In this document: positions 2,621 to 57,538 of the stretch, in pieces | How positions within the stretch are numbered: position 1 is the stretch's first letter | How the letters are laid out: each line of letters opens with the position of its first letter | Assembly: GCA_036521995.1 (NCBI GenBank) | Contig: DATDGR010000233.1 | Coordinates: forward strand, 2,342 to 66,341 | Direction: 5' to 3' | DNA from: Terriglobia bacterium | Lineage (GTDB): Bacteria; Acidobacteriota; Terriglobia; UBA7540 | Length of the DNA stretch: 64,000 nt | Translations under genes and position numbers: made by a program | Notes under the pieces: model-generated | Seen by the model: only the letters and a program-made list of their open reading frames with translations | Database searches by the model: none | Told to the model about the DNA's origin: nothing

Positions 2621-2817
2621 CTCAGGTTCGTTTTGGGTTCGTTTCGGGTTCGTTTTTTCGGCATCCCGAGGGCCTCACTGATTCTAAATGACTTACTGCG
2701 CAGGCCATCGTCAAAGCTCGGGTTCGTTTAGGTTCGTTCTAGGTTCGTTTTTGCGCCGTTTTATTGATTCTAAACAGCTTCTCGGGTTCGTTTTTGCAAT
2801 TTTTTGACCGGGGGGGG
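2621..2817 (-). repeat. composite intergenic element, copy 1: phased GGTTCGTTT units (3+3+1), two TAGAATCA boxes, terminal CCG8 tract
   Basis: GGTTCGTTT starts at 2625, 2636, 2647, 2721, 2742 and 2785, with an 8/9 copy at 2731. GATTCTAAA lies at 2680 and 2766. The G8 run is 2810..2817. Order and spacing are collinear with the element at 53131..53437. Confidence 0.85.
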
Positions 2818-2832
2818 TCCCCTCAAGACCCC

Positions 2833-3740: not shown

Positions 3741-4289
3741 ATGAACGTGGATCGCAGCCGCGACGCTCGGGGGGGCAGGCTGGACCGGCACCCCGTTGCC
3801 AGACCATTTTCCGTTGGCCTCCGTTGGAAAAGCCGTCGACCGGGTCACACGGCTTTATGGGTGTCACTCCTCGCGGGCGTCGCGTTCATGACGGCTCTCA
3901 CCTCATTTAGCGTTCGCGCCCAGCAGGATGATCACAAGCGCAAGGTCCCGGTGATCGACAAGCTCTCGTCGAACACCGATCGGGAGGCATTCAGCGGTCT
4001 AGTGCAGTCTCTAGATCTCAAGGACTCCTTGCTGGTGGTGCACAACACCCGCGACGACACCGACGAATACTTTCCCTTCAAGAAGACCGTGTCCGTGGCC
4101 ACGGCCACCGGCAAGTACCTGACGCTCGACGGCGTGAAACCGGGGCAGAGTGTGTTGGTGTATTACGATCAAAAGGGCAACAAGCGCACGGTGAAGGAGA
4201 TTGTGGTCCTCGAAAATGCCCCTCCCGCGAAGCCTGCTGCGGCCGAACCTGCTGCGCCCGACAAAGACAAGCCCCCGCCCCCATCCTAA
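3741..4289 (+). CDS. hypothetical secreted protein, paralogous in pattern to 5600..5995
   Basis: Hydrophobic signal-like segment LWVSLLAGVAFMTALTSFSVRAQ, then a beta-rich core and a Pro/Ala/Lys-rich tail. The N-terminal extension before the signal is unusually long, so the start is uncertain. Confidence 0.6.
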   Translation: MNVDRSRDARGGRLDRHPVARPFSVGLRWKSRRPGHTALWVSLLAGVAFMTALTSFSVRAQQDDHKRKVPVIDKLSSNTDREAFSGLVQSLDLKDSLLVVHNTRDDTDEYFPFKKTVSVATATGKYLTLDGVKPGQSVLVYYDQKGNKRTVKEIVVLENAPPAKPAAAEPAAPDKDKPPPPS

Positions 4290-4336
4290 GTTCATTCGAT
4301 GCCAGTCACCCATGGGCGCAGATCGGCGCGAGTCTC

Positions 4337-9024: not shown

Positions 9025-10398
9025 CTACCTTCCGGCGGCATCGAGCAGGGCGGGAACCGGAGTCTTCTCCGGCGTAATGAGCTCAGGCAGCTCAAAGCGG
9101 ATCGAGGTCCCCTGGCCGGGGCGGCTGTCTACCCGCAGGGAGAAGTCGTCGCCGTAAAGCACCTTCAAGCGGTCTCGCACGTTGCGGATGCCGATGCCGG
9201 ATTCGAACACCTCGCGCTGCCTCTCGGGCGAAATCCCGACGCCGTCGTCGCTCACCTCGATCACCAGGCGCCCGTCGCGGCGGCTAGTCCGCAGGGTGAT
9301 GGTGCCTCCCTCCACCTTGGGCCCGATACCGTGCCGGATCGAGTTCTCCACCATCGGTTGGAGGATCATGCTGGGGATGGTCATCTCGTAGGTGTCGGGA
9401 TCAATCTGCTTGCACACCCGCAGCTTGTCGCTGCCGAAACGCACTACCTCAATCGAGAGGTAGTCGTCGATGAACTCGAGCTCCTGTTGGAGCGGCAGGA
9501 AATGGGCCTGCGACCGCAGTCGGCGCCGCAGAATGTTGGAAAGCTTCAGCACCACGTTCCGCGCCGTGTCGGGGTCAAAGCGGATCAGCGAGGAGACCGT
9601 ATTCAGCGTGTTAAAGAGGAAATGGGGGTTGATCTGGCTGATGAGGGCGTCCACCCGCGCCTGCATCAGCAGGCGCTCCTGGTCCTCAAGCTTCCGCTCG
9701 ATGCGGGTGCTGTTCCAAATGCGCACCGGAAGCCCCACACCGATCAGCGTCGACAGTACGATCAGCACCTTGGCAAGCGCGTTGTGGGACGAATCGATGT
9801 AGAAGAGCTGGTTGGGAGCGAGGCCTCCGATCATCATACGGGTAATCTCGAGAATGATGCAGATAAGGGCAAACAGCACCTGCCAGTCGAGCGCCGGCGC
9901 CCGAAAGCGCTGCCGGATGGAACGGTAAAGGCTCAGGTCGACGAAAGGTGAAAACTTCCAGATGGCTTCCTTGTCGGGGCAGAGCCAGCGCGCCGACCCG
10001 GCCACCACGGCGTAAAGTACCGCCATCAGCGGAGCCAGGTGTTCGTGAACACGGACCAGCGTCACCGGATCCTGATGACCAAGGAGCCACGCCGGCAGGC
10101 TCACCGCCATTCCCACCACCAGGCCTACGATCGTGCCCCCGAGCAGCCCCGCCAGCACGGTCCCTTCCAGGCTGATGTCGGCGCCTTTGTAGCCGGCCAG
10201 CAACCGCGTCAGCACGGCCAGCATGAAAGGCACACCCAGAAAAGCCGCGAACAAGAGCTTCTGCCGGGGAGTGCGCTGCTCCACGAACAGCAGCCGCTTG
10301 AAGATCCCGAAGCGGGCGATAATACTGGCGAGGGACGCGATCAAGCCGAGCTTGATCAGCAGTGTGACCAGAATCGTGGCGGTGGTGGCTACTTGCAT
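9025..10398 (-). CDS. LytS/YehU-type sensor histidine kinase (5TMR-LYT + His_kinase + HATPase)
   Basis: LISQINPHFLFNTLNTVSSLI motif, a C-terminal ATPase (DDGVGI) and N-terminal TM helices. I prefer the start at MQVATT (10398) to the Arg-rich extension reaching 10521. Confidence 0.8.
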   Translation of the reverse strand: MQVATTATILVTLLIKLGLIASLASIIARFGIFKRLLFVEQRTPRQKLLFAAFLGVPFMLAVLTRLLAGYKGADISLEGTVLAGLLGGTIVGLVVGMAVSLPAWLLGHQDPVTLVRVHEHLAPLMAVLYAVVAGSARWLCPDKEAIWKFSPFVDLSLYRSIRQRFRAPALDWQVLFALICIILEITRMMIGGLAPNQLFYIDSSHNALAKVLIVLSTLIGVGLPVRIWNSTRIERKLEDQERLLMQARVDALISQINPHFLFNTLNTVSSLIRFDPDTARNVVLKLSNILRRRLRSQAHFLPLQQELEFIDDYLSIEVVRFGSDKLRVCKQIDPDTYEMTIPSMILQPMVENSIRHGIGPKVEGGTITLRTSRRDGRLVIEVSDDGVGISPERQREVFESGIGIRNVRDRLKVLYGDDFSLRVDSRPGQGTSIRFELPELITPEKTPVPALLDAAGR

Positions 10399-10542
10399 GG
10401 CTCGTCGGCGCCGACATCGAGCGGCTCCCCTTTTGAGGGGGCCCGGCGTTGCCATTCTAACCCAGCAGAACCTCCATTTCCGATTCTCCCCGGTCCTTGA
10501 GTAGGCAGACGTAGAAGTCAACAGGCAGGATCTCCTTTAGAT

Positions 10543-24405: not shown

Positions 24406-25815
24406 TCATACCTCGCTCTTTGACTCTGGTTCCGGCTCAACCACGAGTTTCAAGCCCTCGACCTCGCGGACGCGGACCCTGCCGCCGATTGCCACCGGCT
24501 GCGCCGAACGGGCTTCCCAGATCTCGCCGCGGATCAGTATCTTGCCCTCGGGCGCGAGGTCCGTTCGGGCCACGCCCACCTGGTTGATCATACCTTGTTC
24601 ACCGGTAATTGTTTTGGCTCGCCGCGCGATCATCGCCAGGCGAAGCAGAATCACGCTGATCACGGCCACGGGAATGGTCACGCTCAGGGCCGTCCCCAGG
24701 CTGATGGCGGCGCCCGGCAGCGGTGACTGGACCAGGATGAGCGCCCCCACCACCATGGCGACGATGCCGCCCGCCGCCAGCACCCCGTGCGAGTTCGCCT
24801 TGACCTCCAGCCCGAACAGAACCAGCGCCAGCAGAATCAGGGCCACCCCGGTGAAGTTGATGGGTAGAAGGTGGAAGGCATACAGCGCCAGGACCATGGC
24901 CAGCGCGCCGGCTGCACCGGGCACCACCATGCCGGGATGGGTAAACTCGACGTAGAGACACAGAGCGCCGATCGCACCGAGAATAAAGGCGATGTTGGGG
25001 TCGGCAATGCGCGCCAGAAAGCGTTCGCGGGTGCTCATGCTGAAAGGTTGCAGGCTCGCACCCGCGAGATGGAGCACGGTCGAGCCGCCTTCAAAGCGAG
25101 CAATGGTGCGCCCGTCGAGCGAGTTGAGCAGATCCTGCGGCGAGTTGGCCACCAAGTCGATCAGGTGGTTGTCGAGCGCTTCCTTCTCTGTGAAGGAGCG
25201 GCTCTGCCGCACGCCCTCCTCCGCCAATTGCGCGTTGCGGCCCCGCTTGCCGGCGATGGAGCGAATGTAGGCGGCGGCGTCATTCTCGATCTTGGTCTCC
25301 ATCGTCTTGCCGATGTCGGCATTCCCCATCATCACCGGATGAGCGGCGCCGGTATTGGTTCCAGGGGCCATGGCGGCCACGTCGCCCGAGAGCAGGATAA
25401 AGAAGCCGGCGGAGGCGGCGCGGCTGCCGCTCGGGGCCACGTAGGTGATCACCGGCACGCGCGAACTGATGATGGCGCGGATGATGTCGCGCATGGAAGT
25501 GTCGAGGCCTCCGGGGGTGCTCAGTTCCAGCATGATGGCGGCGGCGCTCTGCTCATTGGCGGTGCGGATGCCATTTTCGACGTATTCGGCCGTGACAGGC
25601 TCAACGATGTCATCAAGATCGATTTCGACGATTCCGGGCGGACCCGCCGGTCGACCGGGAGCCGCCGGGGCCTTAACAGGACGCGAGGTCGAAGCCAGGA
25701 TCGCGAGACCTGTCAGCAGGGGGCCCAAGCCGATGCGCCACCCGGGCCGGCGCTGGTCCGAATGCCGATATTTCGGCAGCCATCTCGTGATCCTTCTGCT
25801 CAGCCCTCGAGACAT
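24406..25815 (-). CDS. NfeD-family membrane-bound serine protease (ClpP-class domain + TM + C-terminal OB fold)
   Basis: ClpP-like block LELSTPGGL...AASAGFFIL, four TM helices and an OB-fold tail (ILIRGEIWEARS). It forms the canonical pair with the downstream stomatin gene. I prefer the start at MSRGLS. Confidence 0.85.
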   Translation of the reverse strand: MSRGLSRRITRWLPKYRHSDQRRPGWRIGLGPLLTGLAILASTSRPVKAPAAPGRPAGPPGIVEIDLDDIVEPVTAEYVENGIRTANEQSAAAIMLELSTPGGLDTSMRDIIRAIISSRVPVITYVAPSGSRAASAGFFILLSGDVAAMAPGTNTGAAHPVMMGNADIGKTMETKIENDAAAYIRSIAGKRGRNAQLAEEGVRQSRSFTEKEALDNHLIDLVANSPQDLLNSLDGRTIARFEGGSTVLHLAGASLQPFSMSTRERFLARIADPNIAFILGAIGALCLYVEFTHPGMVVPGAAGALAMVLALYAFHLLPINFTGVALILLALVLFGLEVKANSHGVLAAGGIVAMVVGALILVQSPLPGAAISLGTALSVTIPVAVISVILLRLAMIARRAKTITGEQGMINQVGVARTDLAPEGKILIRGEIWEARSAQPVAIGGRVRVREVEGLKLVVEPEPESKSEV

Positions 25816-25859
25816 TTTTATAAGCTTAAGCCCTTCAACAACATCGTGGCTTCGTTCGT
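25808..25859 (-). repeat. 52-bp leader repeat, proximal copy (contains the nfeD ATG)
   Basis: Minus strand: ACGAACGAAGCCACGATGTTGTTGAAGGGCTTAAGCTTATAAAAATGTCTCG. Confidence 0.85.
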
Positions 25860-25962: not shown

Positions 25963-26014
25963 CGAGACATTTTATTAACCCTCATCCCTTCAATAACATC
26001 GTGGCTTCGTTCGT
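25963..26014 (-). repeat. 52-bp leader repeat, distal copy (heads a 12-codon mini-ORF MSRTFGQVPRAS)
   Basis: Minus strand: ACGAACGAAGCCACGATGTTATTGAAGGGATGAGGGTTAATAAAATGTCTCG. It is about 85% identical to the proximal copy, 155 bp away, and lies 15 nt after the TPR gene stop. Confidence 0.85.
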
Positions 26015-41170: not shown

Positions 41171-41246
41171 AGGAGTCAGGAGCCGGAGAGTCATAGATAA
41201 GAAGTCAGAAGCCAGAAGTCAGAAGCCAGAAGCTGGAAGCCAGAAC
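41171..41246. repeat. tandem 14-mer array (AGAAGTCAGAAGCC and variants, about 5 units)
   Basis: Identical units at 41200..41213 and 41214..41227. Variants lie at 41171, 41185 and 41228. Confidence 0.85.
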
Positions 41247-41255
41247 TAGTGTCAT

Positions 41256-41500
41256 GTCTCCGAAGTTCGTCCAAGAATTCAGCTCCGAAGGAGCGACATA
41301 ACGTAGCCCACGGCGTAAGCCGTGGGTCGGGGCACCGCGCCATCCCTCTCCCTCTCCCGCCCGCGCGGGAGAGGGATGCCGAAGGCGGGGTGAGGGCCGA
41401 TTCATCCCAGGGCTCACGCCCTGGGCTACGTCATGTCGCCCCTAACGGGGCTTGCCGGAGCTTCTCTGAGAGCCAGACTTCATCTACGAACTTCTGAGAC
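41256..41500. repeat. MITE-like / REP-like palindromic element with long imperfect terminal inverted repeats
   Basis: Termini GTCTCcGAAGTTCGT (41256..41270) and ACGAACTTCtGAGAC (41486..41500). Each arm carries GCGACATnACGTAGCCCAnGGCGTnAGCCnTGGG with an 8-bp hairpin (41307..41326 and 41406..41425). A central 11-bp perfect stem CATCCCTCTCC/GGAGAGGGATG lies at 41341..41378. Confidence 0.6.
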
Positions 41501-45476: not shown

Positions 45477-45752
45477 CGCCTTTTGTCGTTGGCTGAGAGT
45501 CTGACGGCGACCCACGAAAGATCTCACCCTCCAACTGCCGGCCCTGCTGGCGCCTCAGCCCGATTTCTGGCCATGGCTTGCGCACCGCGCAAGGCAGTGC
45601 GGTTTCCCACGTGAGAGCCGCGTTGGAACCGGGCGGTCCACCAGGGGATTTCAGTATGCCTTGGGACGGCCTCGACAGCACCGGTTGCCAGATTGCTCCA
45701 CAGCGAGTGCGCCCGCCTATCTAACGAACTTTACCCGCTGCCGTATTTCCGC

Positions 45753-45780
45753 TTGACATGCTTAGGTACCATGCTATGGT
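45753..45780 (+). promoter_or_regulatory. candidate sigma70-type promoter TTGACA-16-TATGGT, homologous to the one at 53615..53642
   Basis: TTGACA at 45753..45758 and TATGGT at 45775..45780. The downstream GATG-N5-TGAGTAATC is shared with the 53.6-kb copy. Confidence 0.45.
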
Positions 45781-45789
45781 TGATGAAAT

Positions 45790-45927
45790 ATGAGTAATCA
45801 GGTCGCGCCCTCTTCGATGATGCTTCCCCTGGGCAGGGGCTTTGCTGCGGCGGGGTTTCGGGAGAGGGTCTGGCTGTCCGTCAAGCTGCCCGACGGAGGG
45901 AGCTGGGGCATTTTCGTATGTTATTGA
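45790..45927 (+). CDS. candidate 45-codon ORF (MSNQVAPSSMMLPLGRGFAAAGFRERVWLSVKLPDGGSWGIFVCY), near-leaderless
   Basis: The ATG is 10 nt after the -10 box. Third positions are G/C in 33 of 45 codons by my count. It falls below the ORF-track cut-off and shows no homology I can recognise. Confidence 0.25.
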   Translation: MSNQVAPSSMMLPLGRGFAAAGFRERVWLSVKLPDGGSWGIFVCY

Positions 45928-46045
45928 AAAAATGACATCTAGCTTTTTGGCGGGGGTTTCGCGCTGAAAAAAATCGAAAAGTATCAATCGAAGCCTAAGA
46001 CTCCTCTAGAATCAACACGAGAATCAAAACGGCTCATTCGGAACC
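45928..46045 (+). repeat. diverged relative of the GGTTCGTTT/TAGAATCA composite element
   Basis: GGCGGGGG tract, A-runs, then TAGAATCAA (46007..46015). GAATCAAAACGGCTC follows, matching GAATCAATAAAACGGCGC of copy 1 (minus strand). Confidence 0.35.
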
Positions 46046-46430
46046 CAGCAACTTGTTGATAACACTATTGTTAGACTAAAATCCCAGCATGTCGTTGAAA
46101 GCATGTAGTTTAAGTTGATCTGCGCCGCCCTTCCGGCCGTTTATCCCTGGTTTTTAGCCCCTAGAATGGCGGTCTTGGTCCTTTTTTTCGTGACTGAACG
46201 CCGTCTTGGACCTAACTAACTGACATCAATAAACTTAGACGCCTATTGGTCTGCGGTTGACAACCTGGGGGCGGGGCAGGTGTTCGGCGATGGACAACTT
46301 GTCGCACGCCGGACAACGCGAGCACGCCAGAACGGGATCAGTGTCCCGTAGGCCATTCTGTCTTAAAGCTTTACAATCACGAACCCCTTGGCCCGGCAGT
46401 TGCCTGAGATTCTTCGCTCCGCTGCGCGCT

Positions 46431-46543: not shown

Positions 46544-49042
46544 ATGACAACGTTACTTAGCGATCTGCGTTACGGTTTGCGAACCCTTGCCACGAATCCC
46601 GGCTTCGCGGTTGCCGCCATCCTGTCGCTCGCCTTGGGGGTCGGCGCCAACACGGCCATCTTCCAATTGCTGGATGCGGTGCGGATGCGCACACTTCCGG
46701 TGAGCCACCCTGAGCAACTGGCCGAGCTGCGCCTGACGGACACCACCTGGCTGCGGGGAAGCCAGCAAAGCTGGAACCCGATACTCACCAACCCCATCTG
46801 GGAGCGGATTCGCGATCGTCCGCCCGAGGCTTTTGCCGGCATGTTCGCCTGGGCGGAGGACGATTTCAACATCGCTCCGAGCGGCGAGGTGCGTCACGCC
46901 CAGGGTTTGTGGGTCAGCGGAGAATTCTTCCACGTGTTGGGCGTTCAGCCCCGGCTCGGCCGCCTCTTTGCGGCGGCGGATGACCACCGAGGCTGCGGGC
47001 TGCCGGGAGCGGTGGTGAGCTATGCTTTTTGGCAGCGCGAGCTCGGCGGCGACCTTGCGGCCATCGGCAGGAAGATTACCCTGGACTACCAACCCGTCGA
47101 GATCATCGGTGTCACGTCCGCCGGCTTCTCCGGCCTGGACGTCGGACAGTCGTTCGATGTGGCGCTTCCGCTCTGTTCGCAGGCGACGCTGGAGGACTAC
47201 AGTTTTCTCGACAGCGGCACGATCTGGTGGCTTTCAATCATGGGCCGCCTCAACCCAGGCTGGACTCTGGGACGAACGACCGCAGAATTGGGCTCGATGT
47301 CGCCTGGCATCTTCGAGGCGACGCTGCCGAAGGAATATCCGCGCGAGAATATCAAGGACTACCTTCGTCTCAAACTGGCGGCGTACCCTGCCGGAACAGG
47401 CATTTCCTGGTTGCGTGAGCAGTACCAGGACCCGCTTTGGCTGCTGCTCGCCACCGCCGGGCTGGTTCTCTTGATAGCCTGCGCCAACCTGGCGAACCTC
47501 ATGCTGGCGCGGGCCAGCGCGCGCGAACGTGAGATGGCCGTCCGGCTGGCTTTGGGGGCGTCGCGCGGCCGCCTGATCCGTCAATTGATGGCGGAAAGCC
47601 TGTTGCTGGCAGCCATCGGTGCGGCCCTGGGTCTCGTCCTGTCCGGGGCGTTGAGCCGGTTCATGGTAGCCTTCCTGACCACCCAAGGGACCACTTTGTC
47701 TCTGGACCTGCACCCCGATTGGCGTGTGATCGGCTTCACCGGGGGAGTTGCGATTCTGGCTTGTCTGTTGTTCGGGCTTACCCCCGCGTTGCGAGCGACC
47801 CGCATTGCTCCCGGGGCGGCCATGAAGGCCAGCGGTCGAGGAGTCACCACCACGCGCCAGCACTTCAGCCTGCGGCGGACGCTGGTGGCCACCCAGGTCG
47901 CCCTCTCGCTGGTCCTGCTGGTCGGCGCTCTGCTCTTTTCGCGCAGTCTGCACAACCTGATGACCGTGAAGACGGGCTTCCAGCAGGACGGTATATTGAT
48001 CAGCTACGCCGATATGACGCGCCTCAAGCTACCGTACGAGCGCCACGCGGCGTTCCAACAGGAATTGCTGGAACGTCTGCGCGCTATTCCTGGAGTGGAC
48101 GCGGCGGCGCAAGTGCGGTTTCTGCCGCTCGGCGGGAACGCGACCGAGAATCGGATCTGGAAAAGCGGCTCGGATCCCAGACAGAGCGTCAACGCGTATT
48201 TCAACTGGGTCAGCGACGATTATTTCAAGACGCTACAGACCCCGTTCTTGGCGGGGCGGGATTTTGATACCCGCGACACCGCGACCACTCCGCCGGTGGC
48301 GATTGTGAACCAGGCCTTCGCCCGTGCGCTGGGCTCGGGATCGAATCCGGTGGGCAGTAGGTTTCGAAGAGAGGCCACGCCTTCCGATCCTGCGGAGATG
48401 GACTTCGAGATCATCGGCCTGGTGGCGGATACGAAATACCGGAACATCCGGCAGGATTTTGTCCCTATCGCTTTCCTCTCCGCCTCCCAGGACGCGCGGT
48501 GGAATTGGAGTAACCAGATCCTTATCCGTTCGAACGTACCCATAGGGGATCTCACGTCCAGAGTCCGAGAGGCGATAGCCGGGCTCAATCCGGAAATCGG
48601 CACCGAGTTTGAAGTCTTCAAGACCACCATCCGCGACGGGCTGCTGCGGGACCGCCTGATGGCCACCGTATCCGGTTTTTTCGGTCTCCTGGCAGCGCTC
48701 CTGGCAGTGGTCGGCCTTTATGGCGTGATGTCGTACATGGTGGTACGGCGGACCAACGAGATCGGAATCCGCATGACCCTGGGGGCGGGCCGCAGCGAGA
48801 TCGTCGCCATGGTGATGCGCGAGGCCGGAGCCCTGCTCAGCGTCGGTCTCGGTGTCGGCTTGCTGCTGTCGCTGGCCGGAGCCAAGGCAGCGCGCGCCTT
48901 ACTTTTCGGTCTGCAGCCCTATGATCCGCTGACGCTCGCCTTGGCAGCGGCCTTACTGGCGGCGGTCGCCCTGGCGGCAAGCTTCCTGCCCGCCAAACGT
49001 GCGGCCAGGCTCGATCCCATGGCGGCGCTGAGGTACGAGTAG
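46544..49042 (+). CDS. ADOP-family duplicated FtsX/MacB-like ABC permease
   Basis: N-terminus [36 protein letters not shown], two FtsX modules, and the C-terminal DPMAALRYE. Confidence 0.9.
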   Translation: MTTLLSDLRYGLRTLATNPGFAVAAILSLALGVGANTAIFQLLDAVRMRTLPVSHPEQLAELRLTDTTWLRGSQQSWNPILTNPIWERIRDRPPEAFAGMFAWAEDDFNIAPSGEVRHAQGLWVSGEFFHVLGVQPRLGRLFAAADDHRGCGLPGAVVSYAFWQRELGGDLAAIGRKITLDYQPVEIIGVTSAGFSGLDVGQSFDVALPLCSQATLEDYSFLDSGTIWWLSIMGRLNPGWTLGRTTAELGSMSPGIFEATLPKEYPRENIKDYLRLKLAAYPAGTGISWLREQYQDPLWLLLATAGLVLLIACANLANLMLARASAREREMAVRLALGASRGRLIRQLMAESLLLAAIGAALGLVLSGALSRFMVAFLTTQGTTLSLDLHPDWRVIGFTGGVAILACLLFGLTPALRATRIAPGAAMKASGRGVTTTRQHFSLRRTLVATQVALSLVLLVGALLFSRSLHNLMTVKTGFQQDGILISYADMTRLKLPYERHAAFQQELLERLRAIPGVDAAAQVRFLPLGGNATENRIWKSGSDPRQSVNAYFNWVSDDYFKTLQTPFLAGRDFDTRDTATTPPVAIVNQAFARALGSGSNPVGSRFRREATPSDPAEMDFEIIGLVADTKYRNIRQDFVPIAFLSASQDARWNWSNQILIRSNVPIGDLTSRVREAIAGLNPEIGTEFEVFKTTIRDGLLRDRLMATVSGFFGLLAALLAVVGLYGVMSYMVVRRTNEIGIRMTLGAGRSEIVAMVMREAGALLSVGLGVGLLLSLAGAKAARALLFGLQPYDPLTLALAAALLAAVALAASFLPAKRAARLDPMAALRYE

Positions 49043-49104: not shown

Positions 49105-51602
49105 ATGAACAGGATGCTGCAGGATTTGCGCTACGGCCTTCGCACCCTCGTGAGCAATCCGGGCTTCACGGCTGTGGCCGTCCTCACGCTCGGGCTCGGC
49201 ATCGGGGCCAACACGGCTATCTTCAGCGCCGTGAATGCCGTCTTGCTGCACCCCTTGCCCTACCGGGACTCACAGCGGCTCGTCCGGGTGTGGGCCACCA
49301 ATGTGAAGAACGGGTTTGCCCACGACGTGGCCTCTTATCCCGACTTCACCGACTGGGCCGCTCAGAGCCACAACTTTCAGCAAATGGCGGCGTACTGCGG
49401 CCGCTCCTATAATCTGTCCGGTGGCGATCACCCTGAGCGGATCCGCGGTTTGCAGGCGTCCGCCGGCCTTCTGACGATGCTCGGCATCAGGCCGGCGCTG
49501 GGGCGCGACTTCTCGCCCGAGGAGCAACAACCCGGTCGAAATCATGTGGTGTTGCTCGGCGACAGCCTGTGGCGAAGCCACTTCAATGCGGACCCCAAGG
49601 TGCTGGGCGCGACCGTAAAGCTGAACCACGAAAACTACACGGTGATCGGGGTGCTGCCTCCTTATCCGGAGTTTCCGCCCGACGACGCGCGTGGGTTGGT
49701 GGTGCCCCTCGCACCCGATCCAAGCCGGGGTCACGGGTTTCTGTACGTTTTCGGCCGGCTCAAGCCCGGCGCCACTCTGGCTGAGGCCCAAGCCGAGATG
49801 AGCACCATTGCCCGCCTGCTGCAGCAGCAATATCCCAAGGAGGACCGGGAGGTGGGAATCGAGCTGCAGACCCTCCAAGCGTCCTACGTGAGTGAGTTCC
49901 GGCCCGCTCTTCTAATTCTGCTCGGCGCCGTGGGTTTCGTGCTGCTGATCGCCTGTGCCAATGTGGCGAACTTGTTTCTGGGACGAGCCGCGAGCCGGCA
50001 AAGGGAGCTTGCTATACGCGCATCGCTCGGCGCCGGCAGGCGGCGTCTGATCGGCAATTGCTGACGGAGAGCTTGCTCGTAGGTGCGATGGGGGGAACCC
50101 TAGGCTTGCTCCTGGCGGTCTGGGGCTTGGCGGGCCTGGTCGCGCTGCTTTCGCATGACTTGTCGATACCTCGCGCCGCAGACATCGGCATCGACCGCTG
50201 GATGCTCACCTTCGCTCTGGCGATTTCGCTGGTCACGGGCCTCGTCTCCGGCCTGGCGCCGGCCCTTGGTGCTTCGAAGGTGGATCTGAACGAATCGCTC
50301 AAGGAGGGCAGCCGCGGCCTGACGGGGAGTCGCGGCCATAACCGGTTCCGGAGCGCCCTGGTCGTAGTTGAGGTCGCCCTGGCGTTAGTGCTCCTCTCAG
50401 GCGCGGGTCTGATGATCAAGAGCTTCTTGCTCCTGACCCAGGTGAATTCCGGCCTGCAGCCGGAGAATGTCCTGACGGTCGACTTTTCCTTGCAGAGCTC
50501 GAGATACTCGCACACCGCCACCCGAGCCGCCTCGTTCCAACAGATCCTCCACCGCGTCCAGGAACTGCCCGGCGTCGACTCCGCGGCGGTGGTGGCTGAC
50601 ATTCCTCTCACGCATAACGAGGATGGTCTTGAATTCAGCATCGAAGGGCTTCCGGACCCGCCCAATCAAAGGCGCGAAGCCCGGTTCAACATCGCCGGCC
50701 CCAAATATTTCCGCACGTTGGGCATTCCTTTGCTGGAGGGCCGCGACTTCAGCGAGCGCGACGCCGGCGGCGCGCCCCCGGTGGTGCTCATCAATGAGGC
50801 GATGGCGCGCCGCTTCTGGCCCAACGCGAATCCAATCGGCCAGAGAATCTCAACCGATGCGCCGGCGGCGCCCGAGCCTCTCGGCGAGCACGATCACGCT
50901 CGCGGCGCTGACCAAGCGAACCAGGGGACTTGGTTTTCGGTCATCGGGATTGCAGGCGATGTCCGGCAAATGGGTCTGCGCTCGGAGACACAGCCCGAGG
51001 TCTATGTTTCCTACCTTCAGGATCCCTACCAATGGCCTTTCCTGAGCATGCTGGTGCGGACCACATCCGACCCCCTGAGGTTGTTTCCCGCGGTTGAGCA
51101 GGCGGTCTGGAGTGTGGACAAAGACCAGCCGGTTTCCAACCCGATGACCATGGATCGGATTCGGTCCGACTCGATCGCCCAGCCGCGCGTGACGGCACTG
51201 CTGCTCAGTCTGTTCGCGGCCCTGGCCCTCTTGTTGGCGTCGGTGGGACTCTATGGCGTAGTGGCCCGCTCGGTGACGGAGCGAACTCACGAGATCGGCG
51301 TGCGCGTGGCGCTCGGCGCGAGACCCCTCGAGGTGTTTCGGCAGGTGGTGGGACGCGGGATGATCCTGGCGCTCGCCGGCACGGCTATCGGTCTCGCAGG
51401 CGCTTTCGGCACCACCCGCGTGATGACCAGTCTGCTCTATGACGTTCGCCCCACGGACTGGGTCACCTTCACCGCGGTTTCGCTCCTGCTGATGGCCGTC
51501 ACGCTCCTGGCCAGCTACGTCCCGGCTCGCCACGCGACCAAGATTGATCCCATGGTCGCTCCGCTACGAATAAGACCTTTCAGCCGCCACGGCGCCAGGT
51601 GA
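49105..51602 (+). pseudogene. second ADOP-family duplicated permease with two 1-nt frame breaks (possibly assembly errors)
   Basis: ORFs 49105..50064 and 50058..51602 are collinear with the upstream paralog. LGAGRRRLI|GNC* should read [18 protein letters not shown] (one C missing near 50052/50053). The conserved terminal RYE-stop sits in another frame at 51562..51573. Confidence 0.8.
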
Positions 51603-51812: not shown

Positions 51813-52988
51813 ATGATGGCTACCTCCCGAAACTTGAGTCACGGAATTGAGCCGCCCCGTTGGCGCGGAGTCCTCCTTTGGACTGCCCTTGGCGGCCTGG
51901 CGTTGTCCCTGTTCGCGCTCACGAGTTGTTCGAGCGGCGGCGCGCAGGGTGATCCCGCCCAGGCGATGAAAATGATGATGATGCAGGCCGTGCCGGTGAC
52001 GCTGGCACAGGCTCGACTGAAGACGGTCCCAGTGCAGATTCAAGTGGTCGGCAACGGGGAGGCGTACAACACCGTCAACGTCAAGGCGCAAGTGGACGGC
52101 TTGCTGGAGCGAGCCTATTTTCAGCAGGGCCAGGACGTGCGCGAGGGCGATCTGCTCTTCACCATCGACGCCCGGCCGTTCCAGGCCGCCCTCGATCAGG
52201 CCGAGGCGAACCTGGCCCGCGACCAGGTCCAACTCAAGAACGCACAGGACCAGTACGAGCGCAACGCGGCTCTGTTCAAGGAAGGCATCGTGTCGAAGGA
52301 CCAATACCAGACCTTCCGCACCACGGCTGCGGCCGGTGACGCCACGGTGAAGGCCGACGAGGCGGCTATCGAGAACGCCCGGATTCAGCTTGGATACTGC
52401 ACCATCCGCTCGCCCATCAGCGGCCGCACCGGCAGCCTGCTGGTCCAGGTGGGCAACCTGGTAAAGAACAACGACGCGGCTTTGGTTACGATCAACCAGA
52501 TCACGCCCCTCTACGTCGATTTCTCCGTCCCAGAGCAGTATTTTGCCGAGATCAAGCGGCACCAGGCCGCCGGTCCGCTGAAGGTGGAAGCGATGGTGCC
52601 GCAGGATCAGAGCCACCCCGAATGGGGACAGCTTTCTTTCATCAACAACATGGTGGACACCACGACAGGCACCGTGCTGATGAAGGGCGCCTTCCCCAAT
52701 CCGGCCCGACGGCTCTGGCCCGGCCAGTTTGTCAACGTGGTTGTGACTCTCGATTCGCTGCGGGACGCCGTGGTGGTCCCTAGCCAGGCCGTTCAAACGG
52801 GGCAGCAGGGCAAGTACATCTTCGTGGTGAAAGAAGACAAATCGGTGGAGATACGCCCCGTGACGCCCGGCGTGAGCGACGGCCCTGATACGGTGATCGA
52901 GAAAGGCATCGCCGCGGGCGAGACGGTGGTAACCGACGGCCAGTTGCGGCTGTTCCCCGGAGCCCATGTAGAAGCCAAAAGCCTCTGA
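51813..52988 (+). CDS. efflux RND-type periplasmic adaptor subunit (membrane fusion protein, lipoprotein)
   Basis: Lipobox-like ALTSCSS, lipoyl/hairpin/beta-barrel order, and YCTIRSPISGRTG. It is AcrA/MexA-like. Confidence 0.85.
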   Translation: MMATSRNLSHGIEPPRWRGVLLWTALGGLALSLFALTSCSSGGAQGDPAQAMKMMMMQAVPVTLAQARLKTVPVQIQVVGNGEAYNTVNVKAQVDGLLERAYFQQGQDVREGDLLFTIDARPFQAALDQAEANLARDQVQLKNAQDQYERNAALFKEGIVSKDQYQTFRTTAAAGDATVKADEAAIENARIQLGYCTIRSPISGRTGSLLVQVGNLVKNNDAALVTINQITPLYVDFSVPEQYFAEIKRHQAAGPLKVEAMVPQDQSHPEWGQLSFINNMVDTTTGTVLMKGAFPNPARRLWPGQFVNVVVTLDSLRDAVVVPSQAVQTGQQGKYIFVVKEDKSVEIRPVTPGVSDGPDTVIEKGIAAGETVVTDGQLRLFPGAHVEAKSL

Positions 52989-53130
52989 ACTACAGTGTGA
53001 TGACAACCAGAGCGACAGTGCGCTGAGAGGTTTTCCGCAACCTCAATTACTCTGCCCACTCTGCCTTCGCTGGGATAATCATATTATTATCAATAATCTG
53101 CGCCGGTTTGGCTGACTGGCGCCTTTCTCG

Positions 53131-53437
53131 GGTTCATTTTGGGTTCGTTTCGGGTTCGTTTAGGTTCGTCCTGGTTCAAGTTCACAAGCCTCTGCTGATT
53201 CTGAAGGAGTTGCCGAATTAGACCGCATCAAATCTTAGGTTCGTTTAGGTTCGTTTTGCTTTCGTCTCTCGGGGTCGTTCTTGATCCTTAAACGTTCTGA
53301 AATCGGTCGCTTACCGGTTTGGGTTAGTTTAAAAACAATCTTGGCTGTTTTTCGCCATGTTTCCTGCTAAGCTTAATGTCTAAAAACAGTTACATGTTTG
53401 GGATCTAAAGGCATACATCATATCCCCCCGGGGGGGG
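53131..53437 (-). repeat. composite intergenic element, copy 2: phased GGTTCGTTT units, TCAGAATCA box, C6G8 tract
   Basis: Perfect GGTTCGTTT at 53142, 53153, 53238 and 53248. Near copies at 53131, 53163, 53173, 53271 and 53322. GATTCTGAA at 53197. C6G8 at 53424..53437. Confidence 0.85.
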
Positions 53438-53535
53438 CCTTGACCTTCCAGACTGGGTGTCGCCGGCGCCCCTGTTCCTGCGGGGGTGGCCACCAGCCCT
53501 TCCGGCGTGACAGCAGGACTCTTCACGAGAGACAT
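53380..53535 (-). CDS. candidate 51-codon ORF (MSLVKSPAVTPEGLVATPAGTGAPATPSLEGQGPPRGDMMYAFRSQTCNCF)
   Basis: Good SD (GGGGAGGTTGGTA-ATG) and a promoter 80 nt upstream. Third-position G/C is only moderate (29 of 51 by my count), and the C8/G6 tract lies inside it. Confidence 0.2.
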   Translation of the reverse strand: MSLVKSPAVTPEGLVATPAGTGAPATPSLEGQGPPRGDMMYAFRSQTCNCF

Positions 53536-53614
53536 TACCAACCTCCCCGGCTTCCCGGGCTCACAAGAACCCATCGCGGACCTGGCCGCGAGCGCGATTA
53601 CTCAACTCGCATCT

Positions 53615-53642
53615 GCCATATCATAATTTTTGGGCTTGTCAA
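53615..53642 (-). promoter_or_regulatory. candidate sigma70-type promoter TTGACA-16-TATGGC reading into repeat copy 2
   Basis: On the minus strand, TTGACA (53642..53637), a 16-nt spacer, then TATGGC (53620..53615), followed by aGATG-N5-TGAGTAATC as at 45781..45799. Confidence 0.45.
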
Positions 53643-53668
53643 GCTGAATGCTGGGGCCCGAATTCCGC

Positions 53669-53706
53669 AAAAAAAAGGCGGGCGCTCGCCGAAGCGAACA
53701 CCCGCC
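53669..53706 (-). terminator. intrinsic terminator of the TonB-dependent receptor gene
   Basis: Minus strand: GGCGGGTG-ttcgcttcggcgag-CGCCCGCC followed by T8 (A8 at 53669..53676 on the + strand), about 35 nt after the stop. Confidence 0.7.
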
Positions 53707-53739
53707 ACGGAGGGATTGGCTCGATGAGTGGAGCTGCTC

Positions 53740-56700
53740 CTAGAAGTAAACCTTCAGCGCAAACTGAATGATGCGCGCGCCCGTAGGGTTGAACGCGTTG
53801 GCTTGCTGCACGCTCGTGGTATCTGCGAAGGCCGCGTTATTAGCCTCGCAGCAAGTTCCATTGATACCGCCGAAGTCGTGAATATTGAAGGCGTTGAAGA
53901 ATTCCGCCCGGAACTGCACGGACCGCTTGCCTTCACTAAATGGGAAGTTCTTGAACAGGCCTAGGTCGACGTTGTTGAAGTGGGGGCCGACCTGAGCGTA
54001 GCGCCCTAAAGTTCCAAACTGATACCCGCCGGAAGGAAGGACGCAAGAGCCACCGGAGCAATTCTCCGGGAGCGAATAGGCATTAACGTTCAGGATCCGG
54101 ATGCCGTTGTTGGGGTTGGTGGGATCATTGGTGAAAGTGGACATCGTCGTAGGACCACCCACGTAGTTGGGGCGCTGGCTGTTGCCACGCTGACCCGCGT
54201 TGGCCAAGTCGCTCGGCACACCGATATTGATCGGAAATCCGCTGTTGTAATGGTAGATTCCTGTGAACTCCCAGCCGCCGAGCAAGAGGTCCTCCGCCCG
54301 GTTGAAGTTGGATCCCCAGCGGCGGCCGTGGCCGAAGGGAAGATCTTCGAGCCACTGCGCGGTGAAAATCTGGGCGTAGTTGTTGGCGCTGTTTCCGTAG
54401 TCACAGTAGCGGCACAGGTCGTTCTCCGGCGACGTACCGCCGTAGTTGTCGCCGCTGGGCGTATCGAGCAAGTGCGACCAGGTGTAGGTCACCAGGGCCT
54501 GTGTGCCGCTGGAGAATCTCTTATCCAGCTTCACCTGGAGTCCGTTGTAATTTGATACCGCGTTGTTGGCGTTCTCGCTCAACGAAGTAAGGGTGGGGGC
54601 ATAGGGAAACGACGGCCGCGTCTTCACCGTTCCTGCGGCTATGGCTTGCGTGGTGCAGACCGTCGGGCCCGCGTCGGGGCAAATTTGGAGCGGACCCGGC
54701 GGGGGGTCATTCGCGTTAAAGAACCCGCCGAGATTCTTGGCGTTGTTACCCACGTAGTTGACTTCGAGCATGAGGTTGCGGGCCAGCTGTTGTTGAATAC
54801 CCAGATTCCACTGTCGTGTATAGGGAGTCCGGTTGTTGAGAGCTTGGACGTGCTCCTCACTGGGCGGCGTGCCCGGCTGCGGGAAGTCATAAGGGGGGAA
54901 GAACGTAGCCAGCGGCAGGGTGGGTTGCAGCGTGTTCACGCTGTTGATGCTCTGCGAGATGGCGTAGGGCCATTGGCCTCGGGCTCCTTGCCCCGCCCAG
55001 GCGTAGTCGCCGTTGTAAAAGTACCCGAAGCCCCCCCGGAGCACCGTGTTGGGGCGCAACTGATAGGCAAATCCGACACGCGGAGCCCAGTTCCGGTAGT
55101 CCGGATTCATGAGCGAGCGCGGGGCATTGGCCGGCTGGCCGGTGACAGGGTTCGGCCCGGCCCATGCCAACATATGCTGATCAACATAATAGTTGCCCAG
55201 GTGATTGTACTTATCGAAGGGCCACTGGTTGTATTCCCAACGCAGGCCCATATTCACGGTTAACTTGGTGGTGGGCTTGTAGTTATCCTGAATGTAGAGG
55301 CCTGGCGTGTTCTGGTGGAAGTAGGCCGCGGTATCGCCAACGTTGCGGAGTCCGCTGCTCGGCAGGCCCAGCAGGTAGGAAGCAACTTCATTGATGTTGC
55401 TGCCCGTCGAGGTCAGAGGATCCTGGGTGGGAACCTGATCGAAATTGAACTGCGAGGTGAACGTGCCGTCGTAATAGGCGTTGTAGTGCTCGTACTCGGC
55501 GCCCGTCTTGATCTCGTGCTTGCCCCGCTCCATGGTTATGTTCAGCAGCTCTTGCCATACATTGGTGATAAATGGGTTGCCGCTGGTGCTCGGGTTGGTG
55601 TAATAGGAGCCAAAGTTGAACGCCGGAAACAGCGGAGTGGTCGTGCTCTTGATAGGCGTTCCCTGAATGGGATAGGTCGAAAGAAACGACGCCACGCCAG
55701 GCGCGGGATCGTTGGAGAAGTTGGTGAGGTTGGCGCGATTGTAACCCGACTTGAAGTCTATAATCGTGGTAGGGCTCTTGACCCAGGTGGCGCTGGCGAC
55801 CGCGTTCACGAACTGATTGTACAGGTAATAGTAATTCACCGGCAGACCCTGGGGGCTCGGGTTTACGGCGTGCTGGTCACTCACACGAAAGTAGGAATTG
55901 ACCTTGCTGCCGAAGGAGTGATCGATGCGCCCGCTCAACTGGTACTGGTTGATCGTATTCGGATTGGAGTTGAAAGAGTTGGGCGAGCTGAGGCCGCTGG
56001 TCGAGGGGTACCAAATTCCAGCATAGGCCGCCGTGATGGGACTGACCATGCCTGAGGGAATCGTGTTTCCCGGGAACGGATCTCGCACGTTTCCTGTGGT
56101 CTGCGCCACCAAACCGGTGGTTGGATCCACCTGGCCGGCCGTCACCGAGCGAGTGGTGTAGGGATTGTAGACTTCATTCGCATCGACCGGGCGGCCGAGG
56201 GCGTCAACACACGCCGAATTCTTGTTGACGCCGCACGTCATCAACTGAGAACCCAGGTTACTCGCGAAGTTTCCGCTCAACTCCGTTGCAGTTGGGGCAG
56301 TGGCGGTATTCAGACTGTTCGAGGCGAATCTGAGGCCTTCATAGCTGAAGAACCAGAAGGTCTTGTCCTTCCCATTGTAAAGGTGTGGGAAGTAAACGGG
56401 ACCTCCCGCCACAACGCCAAATTGATTCTGCCGGTAAGCTCCCAGCGGCGCGTTGAAGAAGTTGTTGAACCACGCATTCGCGTCCAGGTCGTTGTTGCGC
56501 AAAAACTCCCAGGCAGCGCCATGAAATTGGTTCGTGCCGGACTTGGTGGCCACGGCGATGGCGGCTCCCGCCGCCCGCCCATACTCGGCCGAGGTGATGT
56601 TGGTTTCGACCTTGAACTCCTGGATGGAGTCGATGGGGGGCTGCATGGCGTACTGCCCGAAGAACTCTTCATTGTTGTAAATTCCGTCCAACTGGAACAT

Positions 56701-57294
56701 GTTGGAGCCGGAGCGGTTGCCGCTGATCTGGTAATTGGACCCGCTGATCTGGAAACTGTTGCCAGTGGATACGCTGCCGGGGACCAACTCGAGCAATTGA
56801 GTGAAGCTCCTGCCGTTCAGCGGCATTTCCGTGACCGTCTGGTTGCCGATCTGGGTTCCCACGGTGGCGTTCGTGGTCTGAAGCACGGGGGCCTTGGCCT
56901 CAACCGTAACCTGTTGCGTCACTTGGCCGACCTGCAGCGCCACGTTGACGGTGGTGTCGGTGCCGATGTCGACCTTGACGTTGTCGACCACCGAGGTCTG
57001 AAAGCCGGAAATCTCCGTCTTCACGCTGTAGATACCCGGGACGAGGTTCCCGACGTGGTAGGCACCGATCTCGTTAGCGATGGCCGTAAGAGCGGTCGTC
57101 GTGCCGGTATTGGTTACCGTTACCTGAGCCTTCGGGATGCTGGCTCCAGACACATCAGTAACCGTTCCGGCGATCCCGCCATAGTAGACTTGTGCTAGGC
57201 CCACCGTTGACGCGGCCAGCAGCAAGGCTACTGCCATCAGGGCACCAAGGCCCAGCCGGCGGCTATTTACCTTATTGCCTTCAGTCTTTTGCAT
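53740..57294 (-). CDS. TonB-dependent receptor-like outer-membrane protein with carboxypeptidase-regulatory-like N-domain
   Basis: Signal peptide, IAGTVTDVSGASIPKAQVTVTN..T......ANEIGAYHVGNLVPGIYSVKTEISGF, a long barrel, and the terminal ...FALKVYF. The start at MQKTEG has the SD GGGGAG. Confidence 0.85.
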   Translation of the reverse strand: MQKTEGNKVNSRRLGLGALMAVALLLAASTVGLAQVYYGGIAGTVTDVSGASIPKAQVTVTNTGTTTALTAIANEIGAYHVGNLVPGIYSVKTEISGFQTSVVDNVKVDIGTDTTVNVALQVGQVTQQVTVEAKAPVLQTTNATVGTQIGNQTVTEMPLNGRSFTQLLELVPGSVSTGNSFQISGSNYQISGNRSGSNMFQLDGIYNNEEFFGQYAMQPPIDSIQEFKVETNITSAEYGRAAGAAIAVATKSGTNQFHGAAWEFLRNNDLDANAWFNNFFNAPLGAYRQNQFGVVAGGPVYFPHLYNGKDKTFWFFSYEGLRFASNSLNTATAPTATELSGNFASNLGSQLMTCGVNKNSACVDALGRPVDANEVYNPYTTRSVTAGQVDPTTGLVAQTTGNVRDPFPGNTIPSGMVSPITAAYAGIWYPSTSGLSSPNSFNSNPNTINQYQLSGRIDHSFGSKVNSYFRVSDQHAVNPSPQGLPVNYYYLYNQFVNAVASATWVKSPTTIIDFKSGYNRANLTNFSNDPAPGVASFLSTYPIQGTPIKSTTTPLFPAFNFGSYYTNPSTSGNPFITNVWQELLNITMERGKHEIKTGAEYEHYNAYYDGTFTSQFNFDQVPTQDPLTSTGSNINEVASYLLGLPSSGLRNVGDTAAYFHQNTPGLYIQDNYKPTTKLTVNMGLRWEYNQWPFDKYNHLGNYYVDQHMLAWAGPNPVTGQPANAPRSLMNPDYRNWAPRVGFAYQLRPNTVLRGGFGYFYNGDYAWAGQGARGQWPYAISQSINSVNTLQPTLPLATFFPPYDFPQPGTPPSEEHVQALNNRTPYTRQWNLGIQQQLARNLMLEVNYVGNNAKNLGGFFNANDPPPGPLQICPDAGPTVCTTQAIAAGTVKTRPSFPYAPTLTSLSENANNAVSNYNGLQVKLDKRFSSGTQALVTYTWSHLLDTPSGDNYGGTSPENDLCRYCDYGNSANNYAQIFTAQWLEDLPFGHGRRWGSNFNRAEDLLLGGWEFTGIYHYNSGFPINIGVPSDLANAGQRGNSQRPNYVGGPTTMSTFTNDPTNPNNGIRILNVNAYSLPENCSGGSCVLPSGGYQFGTLGRYAQVGPHFNNVDLGLFKNFPFSEGKRSVQFRAEFFNAFNIHDFGGINGTCCEANNAAFADTTSVQQANAFNPTGARIIQFALKVYF

Positions 57295-57538
57295 TTGGAA
57301 ACTCCCCTGGGCGATTTGAAGATCTCCGACACCCGTTTCCTGCGGACGCAAATTGAGAGGCCAGTAGTCAGAACACACTAGAACGACAACTATTACCTAT
57401 GAGCCCCAATTGAAAAAAGCGTAAGTGACATGGAGTAACTTGCGGTTAAATCGAGGGCCCAACGGCGTCAATTCCACGTACACGCCTCGGCTCATTGAAC
57501 TTAGCACGGACAATGTCTTGGCCAAGAGTGGTCGATTG

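Follow-up and report, generated by a model that had tools for sequence, protein, structure and literature searches.

Here we describe an intergenic repeat element in a 64-kb stretch of DNA (the window), a piece of chromosome of ordinary type with 62% G+C from a metagenome-assembled genome (MAG) of a Terriglobia bacterium. The window holds two copies of the element, copy 1 near its left end and copy 2 at 53075-53642 (Table 1). Copy 2 sits between convergent genes. On the plus strand it is preceded by three open reading frames (ORFs) for MacB/FtsX-type permeases and then by an RND-type membrane-fusion adaptor, and on its other side lies a TonB-dependent-receptor-like gene with its own intrinsic terminator. 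Throughout, sense denotes the A/C-rich strand of the element, which is the minus strand of the window. Copy 1 is found between two minus-strand genes, after an ORF of 152 aa (3291-2833), starting 15 nt past its stop codon, and before the gene of a repeat-rich secreted protein. No integrase, such as would adjoin an attachment-site arm of a phage or integrative conjugative element (ICE), was found near either copy in the gene annotation of the window. The short-read (Logan) contigs of the source sample break in both copies (L001 at ~53168 and L115 at ~2787), and contigs that stop inside both copies are the behaviour of a multi-copy repeat.

Table 1. Features of copy 2, its neighbouring genes and related elements in the window.
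Feature	Coordinates	Strand	Basis
RND-type periplasmic adaptor (membrane-fusion protein, MFP), no permease gene after it	51813..52988	+	Pfam
TonB-dependent-receptor-like gene, 1212 aa, co-directional gene upstream of copy 2 on the sense strand	53740..57378	-	Pfam
Intrinsic terminator of the receptor gene (stem 53706-53677 plus T-run)	53667-53706	-	terminator scan
Promoter-like site: -35 TTGACA 53642-53637; 16-nt spacer with TG at 53623-53622 (extended -10); -10 TATGGC 53620-53615	53615..53642	-	sequence
Variable segment between promoter and hairpin, 67% GC, with a 64-aa ORF inside	53438..53608	-	composition
C6G8 palindrome, hairpin module, upstream (sense) border of the repeat part	53424..53437		sequence
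A5..T5 inverted repeat AAAAACAATCTTGGCTGTTTTT, adjoining the first (degenerate) unit	53331..53352		sequence
Degenerate units GGTTAGTTT (53322), GGGTCGTTC (53271) and GCTTTCGTC (53258); box-like GTTCTGAAA (53294) and GATCCTTAA (53283)	53258..53330	-	sequence, motif search
Two perfect units (53238, 53248), spacing 10 bp	53238..53256	-	motif search, Tandem Repeats Finder
Spacer with box GATTCTGAA (53197-53205; sense TTCAGAATC) and CATCAAAT	53183..53237	-	similarity to copy 1 spacer
Five-unit cluster, spacings 11, 11, 11, 10: 53131 (GGTTCATTT), 53142 and 53153 (perfect), 53164 (GGTTCGTCC), 53174 (GGTTCAAGT)	53131..53182	-	motif search, Tandem Repeats Finder (period 11/21)
Far border: AT-rich box ATAATCATATTATTATCAATAAT and hairpin GCGCCGGTTTGGCTGACTGGCGC (53100-53122)	53075..53122		sequence, plus-strand fold
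Copy 1, canonical type 1: hairpin 2803-2818, unit 2785, box 2766-2774, units 2721-2750, box 2680-2688, units 2625-2655	2621..2818	-	nhmmer
Degenerate third relative in opposite orientation, before the MacB-like operon: paralogous promoter, G+C-rich stretch, boxes GTTATTGAAAAAA, TCTAGAATCAACA and CTTGTTGATAACA, weak units	45752..46090	+	sequence, weak nhmmer

Our results show that the sequence at 53075-53642, although somewhat degenerate, truly belongs to a large family of modular repeats that are non-coding and lie between genes. The 9-mer GGTTCGTTT has 11 exact matches in the window, all on the plus strand, where ~0.5 would be expected (9-mer, 2 x 64 kb), so that chance does not account for them; ten of the 11 fall within 2625-2793 and 53142-53256, and Tandem Repeats Finder reported periods of 10, 11 and 21 in both copies. 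Alignment of copy 1 (2560-2840) with copy 2 (53090-53450) by MAFFT gave 70% identity over 385 columns, including the boxes GATTCTRAA and CATCRTCAAA. When the units were masked, spacer 1 of the two copies scored 21 as compared to 12 ± 2 for shuffled sequences (1/1000) and the tail with the G/C tract scored 20 as compared to 11.9 (1/1000), while spacer 2 showed no significant similarity between the copies in the shuffle test. The pairwise alignment thus reveals a similarity that is not confined to the 9-mers. The preliminary description of this DNA had proposed a second, longer and more degenerate copy with the same orientation and module order, and alignment, masked shuffles and profiles all agree with it; its further claim that the alignment runs through the inter-cluster spacers is borne out by the shuffle test for spacer 1, with no significance for spacer 2. 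The units, boxes, C6G8 tract, terminator and TTGACA-16-TATGGC sequence that it listed were all recovered within one nt of where it had placed them, and the far AT-rich palindrome, given earlier as near 53076..53088, is present one base off, at 53075-53087 (ATAATcatATTAT).

A scan for three consecutive units, with one genome per species, returned at least 108 loci, nearly all of them in MAGs of Terriglobia/Acidobacteriota and Planctomycetota; among the matches listed, the planctomycetotal carriers were Sedimentisphaerales, other Phycisphaerae, Pirellulales and Tepidisphaeraceae. At least 14 copies were counted in one Terriglobia MAG, at least 13 in one of Sedimentisphaerales and at least 12 in another of Planctomycetota, and genomes of soil Acidobacteria and Planctomycetes carry the family in dozens of copies each. 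The core shared by the copies of one genome is 160-240 nt long, and the flanks are unrelated. Profile hidden Markov models built solely from the copies of other genomes, with no window sequences included, recovered both window copies: in nhmmer searches the profile of the type-1 subtype matched copy 1 with an E value of 9e-29 and copy 2 in two parts, with 2e-11 (53292-53195) and 1e-9 (53208-53131), and the type-2 profile likewise matched both. In the literature on the 9-mer and on repeats of Acidobacteria and Planctomycetes we found no description of such an element, and the family is apparently undescribed. The outliers among the matches listed (Flavobacterium, Chitinophaga, Actinomycetota and six viral contigs) consist of a bare tandem array only and look unrelated to the family. 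The six viral arrays came from a scan of a viral collection and have none of the other modules. Alone among the outliers, the bare three-unit GGTTCGTTT array of the Flavobacterium MAG (L018) lies ~100-400 nt from the 3' end of an apparent tyrosine-integrase gene, as judged by eye; it is reminiscent of the arm-type sites of integrases, and a similar repeat has probably been put to an unrelated use here.

Read in the sense direction, an element starts either with a sigma-70-type promoter and a variable stretch or with the 3' end of the upstream gene. A hairpin module follows, which is a G/C palindrome in type 1, an A7..T7 palindrome in type 2 and takes the form of TGTAGAG/CTCTACA palindromes in the Planctomycetes. 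After the hairpin come an A-rich stretch, often ATGCAAAA, the first AAACGAACC unit, a box (CGAGAAGnnnTTTAGAATCAACAAAAC, GAGAAGTTGTTGAAAAC or TTATTGATAAC), a cluster of three or four units, a second box and the last cluster. Overall, the conserved box types TTTAGAATC, TTGTTGAAAAC and TTATTGATAAC alternate with clusters of 2-5 units at 10 or 11 bp, and in the Pirellulales copies inverted units flank the arrays. Copy 1 has the order hairpin-unit-box-cluster-box-cluster on one strand exactly, and agrees module for module with the elements of L117, L119 and L110. The same order is found in copy 2, which is longer, holds both a C/G palindrome and an A5..T5 repeat, and has extra degenerate units and boxes and a last cluster of five units.

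Single modules of copy 2 also have their equivalents in the family. G/C palindromes corresponding to the C6G8 tract are present in copy 1, at 14 loci of MAG DATJYK and in L117 and L119, and the order of G-run and C-run differs among copies, as is expected of a hairpin. The AAAAACAATCTTGGCTGTTTTT inverted repeat is the counterpart of the A7..T7 palindrome found ahead of the first unit in the type-2 elements of Acidobacteria, and the spacer box is the TTTAGAATC box that is present in all type-1 elements. At the far border, the AT-rich box is a variant of the TTATTGATAAT box of the family, variants of which (GTTATTGATAATAAA) also occur in L052, L093 and L112; the hairpin GCGCCGGTTTGGCTGACTGGCGC beside it pairs better on the plus strand and may be the terminator of the adaptor operon. 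In L117, a called gene (3715-4830) reads into the element, past the hairpin and the first units, and ends at a TAG within the array, so that its C-terminal codons and its stop apparently come from the repeat.

The preliminary description had credited copy 2 with a clean promoter of its own and with a transcribed unit of ~500 nt, which we regard as putative. A sigma-70 scan with the rule -35 TTGACA, 16-18 bp, -10 TAnnnT called no promoter at 53642-53615, because the -10 hexamer TATGGC ends in C and not in T. The -35 is perfect (6/6), the spacer is 16 nt long and a TGn extension is present (TTGACA-16-TGaTATGGC), and the first 85 nt are ~70% identical to a paralogue at 45752(+) that has TTGACA-N16-TGcTATGGT and GAGTAATC. 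There are near-consensus counterparts in the family as well: in type-2 elements of Acidobacteria gcTTGAC(A/T)-N17-(TGn)TAGTCT is found 200-330 nt upstream of the arrays, and in Planctomycete elements TTGACT-N17-TGnTAAAAT or TATAAT is found 300-500 nt upstream. Within 1.5 kb, sites of this kind show a strong enrichment at that distance from the array and are all but missing elsewhere. On these sequence grounds we regard the copy 2 promoter as plausible but imperfect, "clean" having been an overstatement. Type-1 copies, copy 1 among them, lack their own promoter and are placed behind the stop codon of the upstream gene; the promoter before the 152-aa ORF belongs to that gene and is conserved in its orthologues. 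Downstream of its promoter, copy 2 has 170 nt of G+C-rich unique sequence at a place where family members have a non-conserved segment of ~26-200 nt. This segment was without similarity to any fetched locus, and its 64-aa ORF had no Pfam match. By inspection, no conserved -35 was found 16-18 bp from the TAGAAT/TATAAT boxes in any subtype, and we lean against reading these boxes as -10 hexamers of outward promoters. Compared by eye, a sigma-54 promoter, the IHF consensus and the DnaA box gave partial matches to the family boxes at best. The 45752(+) paralogue belongs to the third relative of Table 1, for which the nhmmer matches were weak only (E 0.12-0.46); it lies in a non-coding leader of ~500 nt (45752-46250, plus strand) of the MacB-like operon, and this leader includes the copy-2-like promoter and family boxes.

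The spacing of the units follows the DNA helix. From unit to unit the distance was 10 bp in 142 cases and 11 bp in 182, alternating 10/11 spacing pairs outnumbered same-spacing pairs (106 vs 59), and secondary peaks were seen at 21 and 32 bp; the alternation and the peaks point to a period of ~10.5 bp, that is one helical turn. The search pattern permitted 10- or 11-bp spacings only, which biases the primary peak but not the alternation or the harmonics. The element is also polar with respect to genes, as the gene on the array side is directed away from it in a ratio of 70:28, and co-directional flanks are in agreement with the sense strand in a ratio of 25:8.

Near the orthologues of the 152-aa gene (62-64% identity), L117 and L119 have a type-1 element whose modules follow in the same order, one gene further downstream; that it was kept near such diverged orthologues argues for long-term persistence. 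The 152-aa ORF was considered as cargo of the element and rejected as such, since its orthologues keep their own promoter with no array directly downstream, and it is an ordinary neighbour gene. Identity among copies was 84% within a genome and 72% between genomes. L052 and L107, both upstream of folP in different MAGs, are 78% identical, as compared to 81-87% for L107 and its own paralogues. The likeness within genomes thus exceeds that between genomes, the folP pair included, and this is concerted evolution. In the elements of L119 and L110 every unit is AACAAACC, where the window and L117 use AACGAACC; such a joint change of all units, like the concerted evolution, would fit a trans-acting factor or homogenisation. 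The AACAAACC elements (L119 4537-4748, L110 12362-12554) are from the same metagenome as L117, and AACAAACC looks like a genome-specific unit variant.

A protein-coding repeat was rejected, because copies differ in the number of their units and in the 10/11-nt spacing, and no reading frame could be maintained. In Planctomycete copies the T-poor sense strand yields long open frames, in which a repeated peptide is seen by eye; the long ORFs over the repeat are a consequence of the T-poor sequence. When the ORFs within 3 kb of 112 copies were clustered all against all, the one cluster that was widely shared was made up of ORFs running across the repeat, and neither a transposase nor a conserved neighbour was found.

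Copy 2 lies where the preliminary description had expected an RND pump gene, and an insertion or deletion scar had been considered there. The expectation of a permease as partner was sound, as the adaptor has RND-type MFP domains (Pfam) and an ACR_tran permease follows the related adaptors of L114 (59% identity) directly and of L113 (78%) after a 580-nt spacer. There is no permease between 52988 and 53740 and no RND tripartite operon layout, and by this comparison the RND permease has been lost from the window lineage. Copy 2 is not a remnant or scar of the pump, since its sense strand is that of the TonB receptor gene and it has the usual place of the family behind a co-directional gene, outside the adaptor operon. 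That it replaced an acrB-like gene by deletion or insertion is hardly credible to us. The RND-type adaptor, the downstream ACR_tran genes of L113 and L114, and a C6..G7 palindrome with a box-like motif after the adaptor of L112 (77%; a weak nhmmer match, E 0.1) would speak for it, but 52989-53740 holds no pump-derived sequence and has no similarity to the post-adaptor DNA of any relative. Comparison of synteny gave the same answer: the closest relatives, L110 and L111 (85-86%), have the adaptor without pump, followed by unrelated sequence with no element at that spot (in L110 a Trans_reg_C/PD40 gene, with a type-1 element 5 kb away), and the family is present at many loci unrelated to efflux genes. 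A pump pseudogene was rejected as well, the ORFs of 53380-53727 having no Pfam match and no similarity to the loci of the relatives. The spacer in L113 (7135-7718) contains an inverted ACAAAGCC/GGCTTTGT pair and the TGATGCGGAAGG motif twice, and gave no significant match to the family profiles.

What the family does can be weighed between several readings. Our tentative preference, which we put somewhat below an even chance, is a host-maintained repeat comparable to the repetitive extragenic palindromic (REP) sequences and their bacterial interspersed mosaic elements (BIMEs) or to BOX elements, in which the phased units bind an oligomerising DNA-binding protein and form a polar nucleoprotein module at gene boundaries. 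The helical phasing, the inverted units and the lack of RNA structure suggest that the element acts as DNA, in which case the units, lined up on one face of the helix, would be bound by a sequence-specific protein that oligomerises and binds cooperatively; our best guess is a winged-helix protein of OmpR/PhoB-like type that recognises GTTC(A/G) direct repeats. The hairpin and the boxes would be further sites in this module, which would modulate or insulate the transcription of neighbouring genes, and propagation and homogenisation would proceed in the manner of REP/BIME or BOX elements. On this reading copy 2 would be a boundary element that resides behind the receptor gene and is read through from a promoter of its own, of weak to moderate strength. 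A number of points weigh against this preference. The spacing restriction in the search pattern inflates the phasing signal. The -10 hexamer of copy 2 is without the conserved final T, and the concerted change of units can also be explained by gene conversion without any factor. The orientation bias and the place behind promoters or stop codons fit a role at the RNA level equally well, and a sense strand rich in A and C and poor in G gives the arrays a likeness to Rho utilisation (rut) sites. Rather unlikely, but to be taken seriously, is a selfish non-autonomous mobile element akin to a miniature inverted-repeat transposable element (MITE) or REPIN, whose hairpin and adjoining short direct repeats would be recognised in trans by a recombinase of HUH or other type, and whose orientation bias would come from strand-specific insertion. 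High copy number, like copies at unrelated loci without shared flanks, the higher similarity within than between genomes, the assembly breaks and a hairpin-plus-iteron layout as in rolling-circle origins would all suit a mobile element, and class-3 HuH-Y1 genes with high-copy REP-like repeats have been reported mainly in Planctomycetes and Acidobacteria (PMC6006769). The phyla fit, but the class-3 REP consensus CnGAGCCGCGACCGTnAGGGAGCG (PMC6006769 Table S1) is unrelated in sequence and absent from the window, and these repeats were rejected as an identity for the element. No imperfect palindrome of 20-40 nt with a 5' foot of GTAG/CGTC, or of CnGA-GCCGCGACCGT as in class 3, was found, the hairpin being a bare G/C run, and no HuH-like cluster was found among the neighbours of the element in the 64-kb window and the 8-kb loci. 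Nor were terminal inverted repeats or target-site duplications seen; the window copies have no inverted arms, and at the borders of 26 copies the module repeats are direct, not inverted, with no duplication. As a transposase or conserved protein was also absent within 3 kb of the 112 copies, we rejected a conventional transposon or MITE, and the intact module order retained in an equivalent neighbourhood of diverged relatives likewise argues against mobility.

An action at the level of RNA would have the A/C-rich repeats of the nascent sense transcript serve as a Rho-loading (rut) site or as a platform or sponge for an RNA-binding protein, making the element a transcription-unit boundary or leader attenuator whose hairpin marks or stabilises the upstream 3' end. 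We consider this unlikely. It is in line with a sense strand that is co-directional with genes, with the place directly behind stop codons (15 nt in copy 1) or strong promoters, with the absence of secondary structure and with units that have one G per 9-11 nt. However, the whole element has 20-22% G and 25% C, so that C does not markedly exceed G, Rho requires no conserved 9-mer, the 10/11 alternation (~10.5 bp) and the inverted units have no RNA rationale, and the sequence after the hairpin is A-rich rather than U-rich. A structured small RNA was rejected: no Rfam family matched the repeat, either at the gathering threshold or at E<=10, the RNAalifold consensus fold of 10 sense sequences contained 0 pairs, and the sense RNA of copy 2 was no more stable than its shuffles (z = +0.23). 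The z of -1.98 for the antisense strand of copy 2 was attributed to G-U pairing between the G/U-rich units. Operator arrays of a single regulon, controlled by LexA (GTTC-N7-GTTC) or by a Pho-type response regulator, are in our view very improbable. The LexA box of Acidobacterium capsulatum is said to be GTTC-N7-GTTC, a pattern that units 11 bp apart reproduce. This sequence is the LexA box documented for Alphaproteobacteria (PMC3091678), and PMC3789691 cites a paper (Mazon 2006) whose title reports the A. capsulatum LexA box. Against a regulon, half of the spacings are 10 bp, the AAACGAACC unit also occurs in Planctomycetota, and dozens of multi-site arrays per genome would titrate the regulator. 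The genes downstream of the copies are unrelated to each other and, as read from N-terminal sequences, include the housekeeping genes ilvC, leuC, guaB, folP, zwf and mnmG; no SOS or Pho gene was recognised among them, and a LexA/Pho operator was rejected because the neighbouring genes do not fit. Bolder, and in our judgement rather doubtful, is the idea that the family is the cis-site of an undescribed trans-acting system, probably shared horizontally by Acidobacteriota and Planctomycetota, in which an oligomerising protein or an HUH-type enzyme recognises the hairpin and the phased GGTTCGTTT units and forms polar complexes at dozens of gene boundaries. If true, the family would be a novel type of boundary or insulator element for chromosomal transcription, or an origin-like mobilisable element, and the genome-wide unit switch from AACGAACC to AACAAACC would be a case of co-evolution with the protein.

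Among known systems the family is nearest in kind to REP/BIME and BOX repeats, with a different build. Some BIMEs bind host proteins, for example IHF and gyrase, and BOX elements can affect the expression of neighbouring genes. The REP/BIME elements of enterobacteria and the REPINs are likewise short, non-coding, high-copy, intergenic and modular, with a hairpin module and an awareness of gene orientation (PMC3733652, PMC8049555, PMC6006769). They also share long persistence and concerted evolution with the present family, which differs from them in having no palindrome pairs with GTAG/CGTC feet, in consisting mostly of tandem 9-mers at 10/11 bp instead of palindromes, in carrying a promoter in some subtypes and in showing no link to a REP-associated tyrosine transposase (RAYT). 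The BOX elements of Streptococcus pneumoniae are likewise modular (A-B-C), dispersed between genes and built with a variable number of short tandem sub-units, but these sub-units are 45-59 nt long and form RNA/DNA stem-loops, whereas ours are units of 9 nt, helically phased and unstructured. Sites with phased repeats are known from parC of plasmid R1 (ten 11-bp iterons around a promoter), the double-strand origin of pMV158 (a hairpin and three 11-bp iterons), the low-affinity DnaA 9-mers spaced by 2 bp in oriC, and the OmpR/PhoB/TorR boxes. Such iteron-type sites have the same 9-11-bp direct repeats per helical turn, clusters parted by a spacer with another site and an adjoining hairpin, but they are single-copy and lie beside their cognate gene, unlike this family with its dozens of dispersed chromosomal copies and no cognate gene nearby. 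A GTTC(A/G) core in a 10-11-bp direct repeat is a signature of binding by winged-helix proteins of the OmpR/PhoB type; as a lead, the core of the units is similar to those of the tor box (CTGTTCATAT) and of the PHO box of actinobacteria (GTTCACC). Putative mobile promoters (PMC3575422) are likewise near-identical promoter-bearing segments before unrelated genes, within and between genomes. In our family, by contrast, the promoter is an optional module aimed into a long array and not directly at a gene, and type-1 copies are without it.

Soils and sediments are rich in Terriglobia and Planctomycetota, whose gene-regulatory signals have hardly been studied. The same 9-mer has been kept across these two phyla, and the repeat is likely to shape transcription-unit boundaries in these organisms. 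The repeat also breaks short-read assemblies, and its T-poor sense strand makes spurious long ORFs. If a cognate binding protein exists, the family would be a ready-made set of sites for finding it.

Isolated unit-plus-box modules were also seen upstream of five window genes, in sense orientation in all five. A 52-nt segment is present twice, at 25808-25859 and 25963-26014, the two being 155 nt apart and 87% identical; it comprises one unit-plus-box module (sense ACGAACGAAGCCACGATGTTRTTGAAGGG) and the start codon region ATGTCTCG of an NfeD-like gene, and is a tandem duplication of the 5' region of this gene. The gene that follows copy 1 on the minus strand (1039-2491) encodes a secreted protein with coding repeats of 153-180 nt and an IPT/TIG domain. 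Its single-frame translation has several stops or frame changes, which may mean a pseudogene or repeats that were misassembled. Before the adaptor, two overlapping plus-strand ORFs (49105-50064 and 50058-51602; 319 and 514 aa) jointly have the MacB_PCD-FtsX-MacB_PCD-FtsX domains of the neighbouring 832-aa permease (46544-49042). They look like one gene divided by a frameshift, and the same split recurs in an independent Logan assembly of the same sample.

Two further observations concern regulators and RNAs elsewhere in the window. A LytS-type histidine kinase (9025-10521, minus strand; His_kinase PF06580 and HATPase_c) has no LytTR response regulator gene adjoining it. The AlgR (LytTR) site CCGTTCGTC has the GTTCGT core in common with the repeat unit, and we mention it as a lead only. 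Two matches to the Acido-Lenti-1 RNA lie on opposite strands at 41281-41326 (minus) and 41406-41452 (plus), with 60 and 51 bits as compared to a gathering score of 37; the pair encloses a 28-nt inverted repeat (41333-41392), and beside it is a tandem repeat of the 7-nt sequence AGAAGCC in 6.6 copies (41200-41245).

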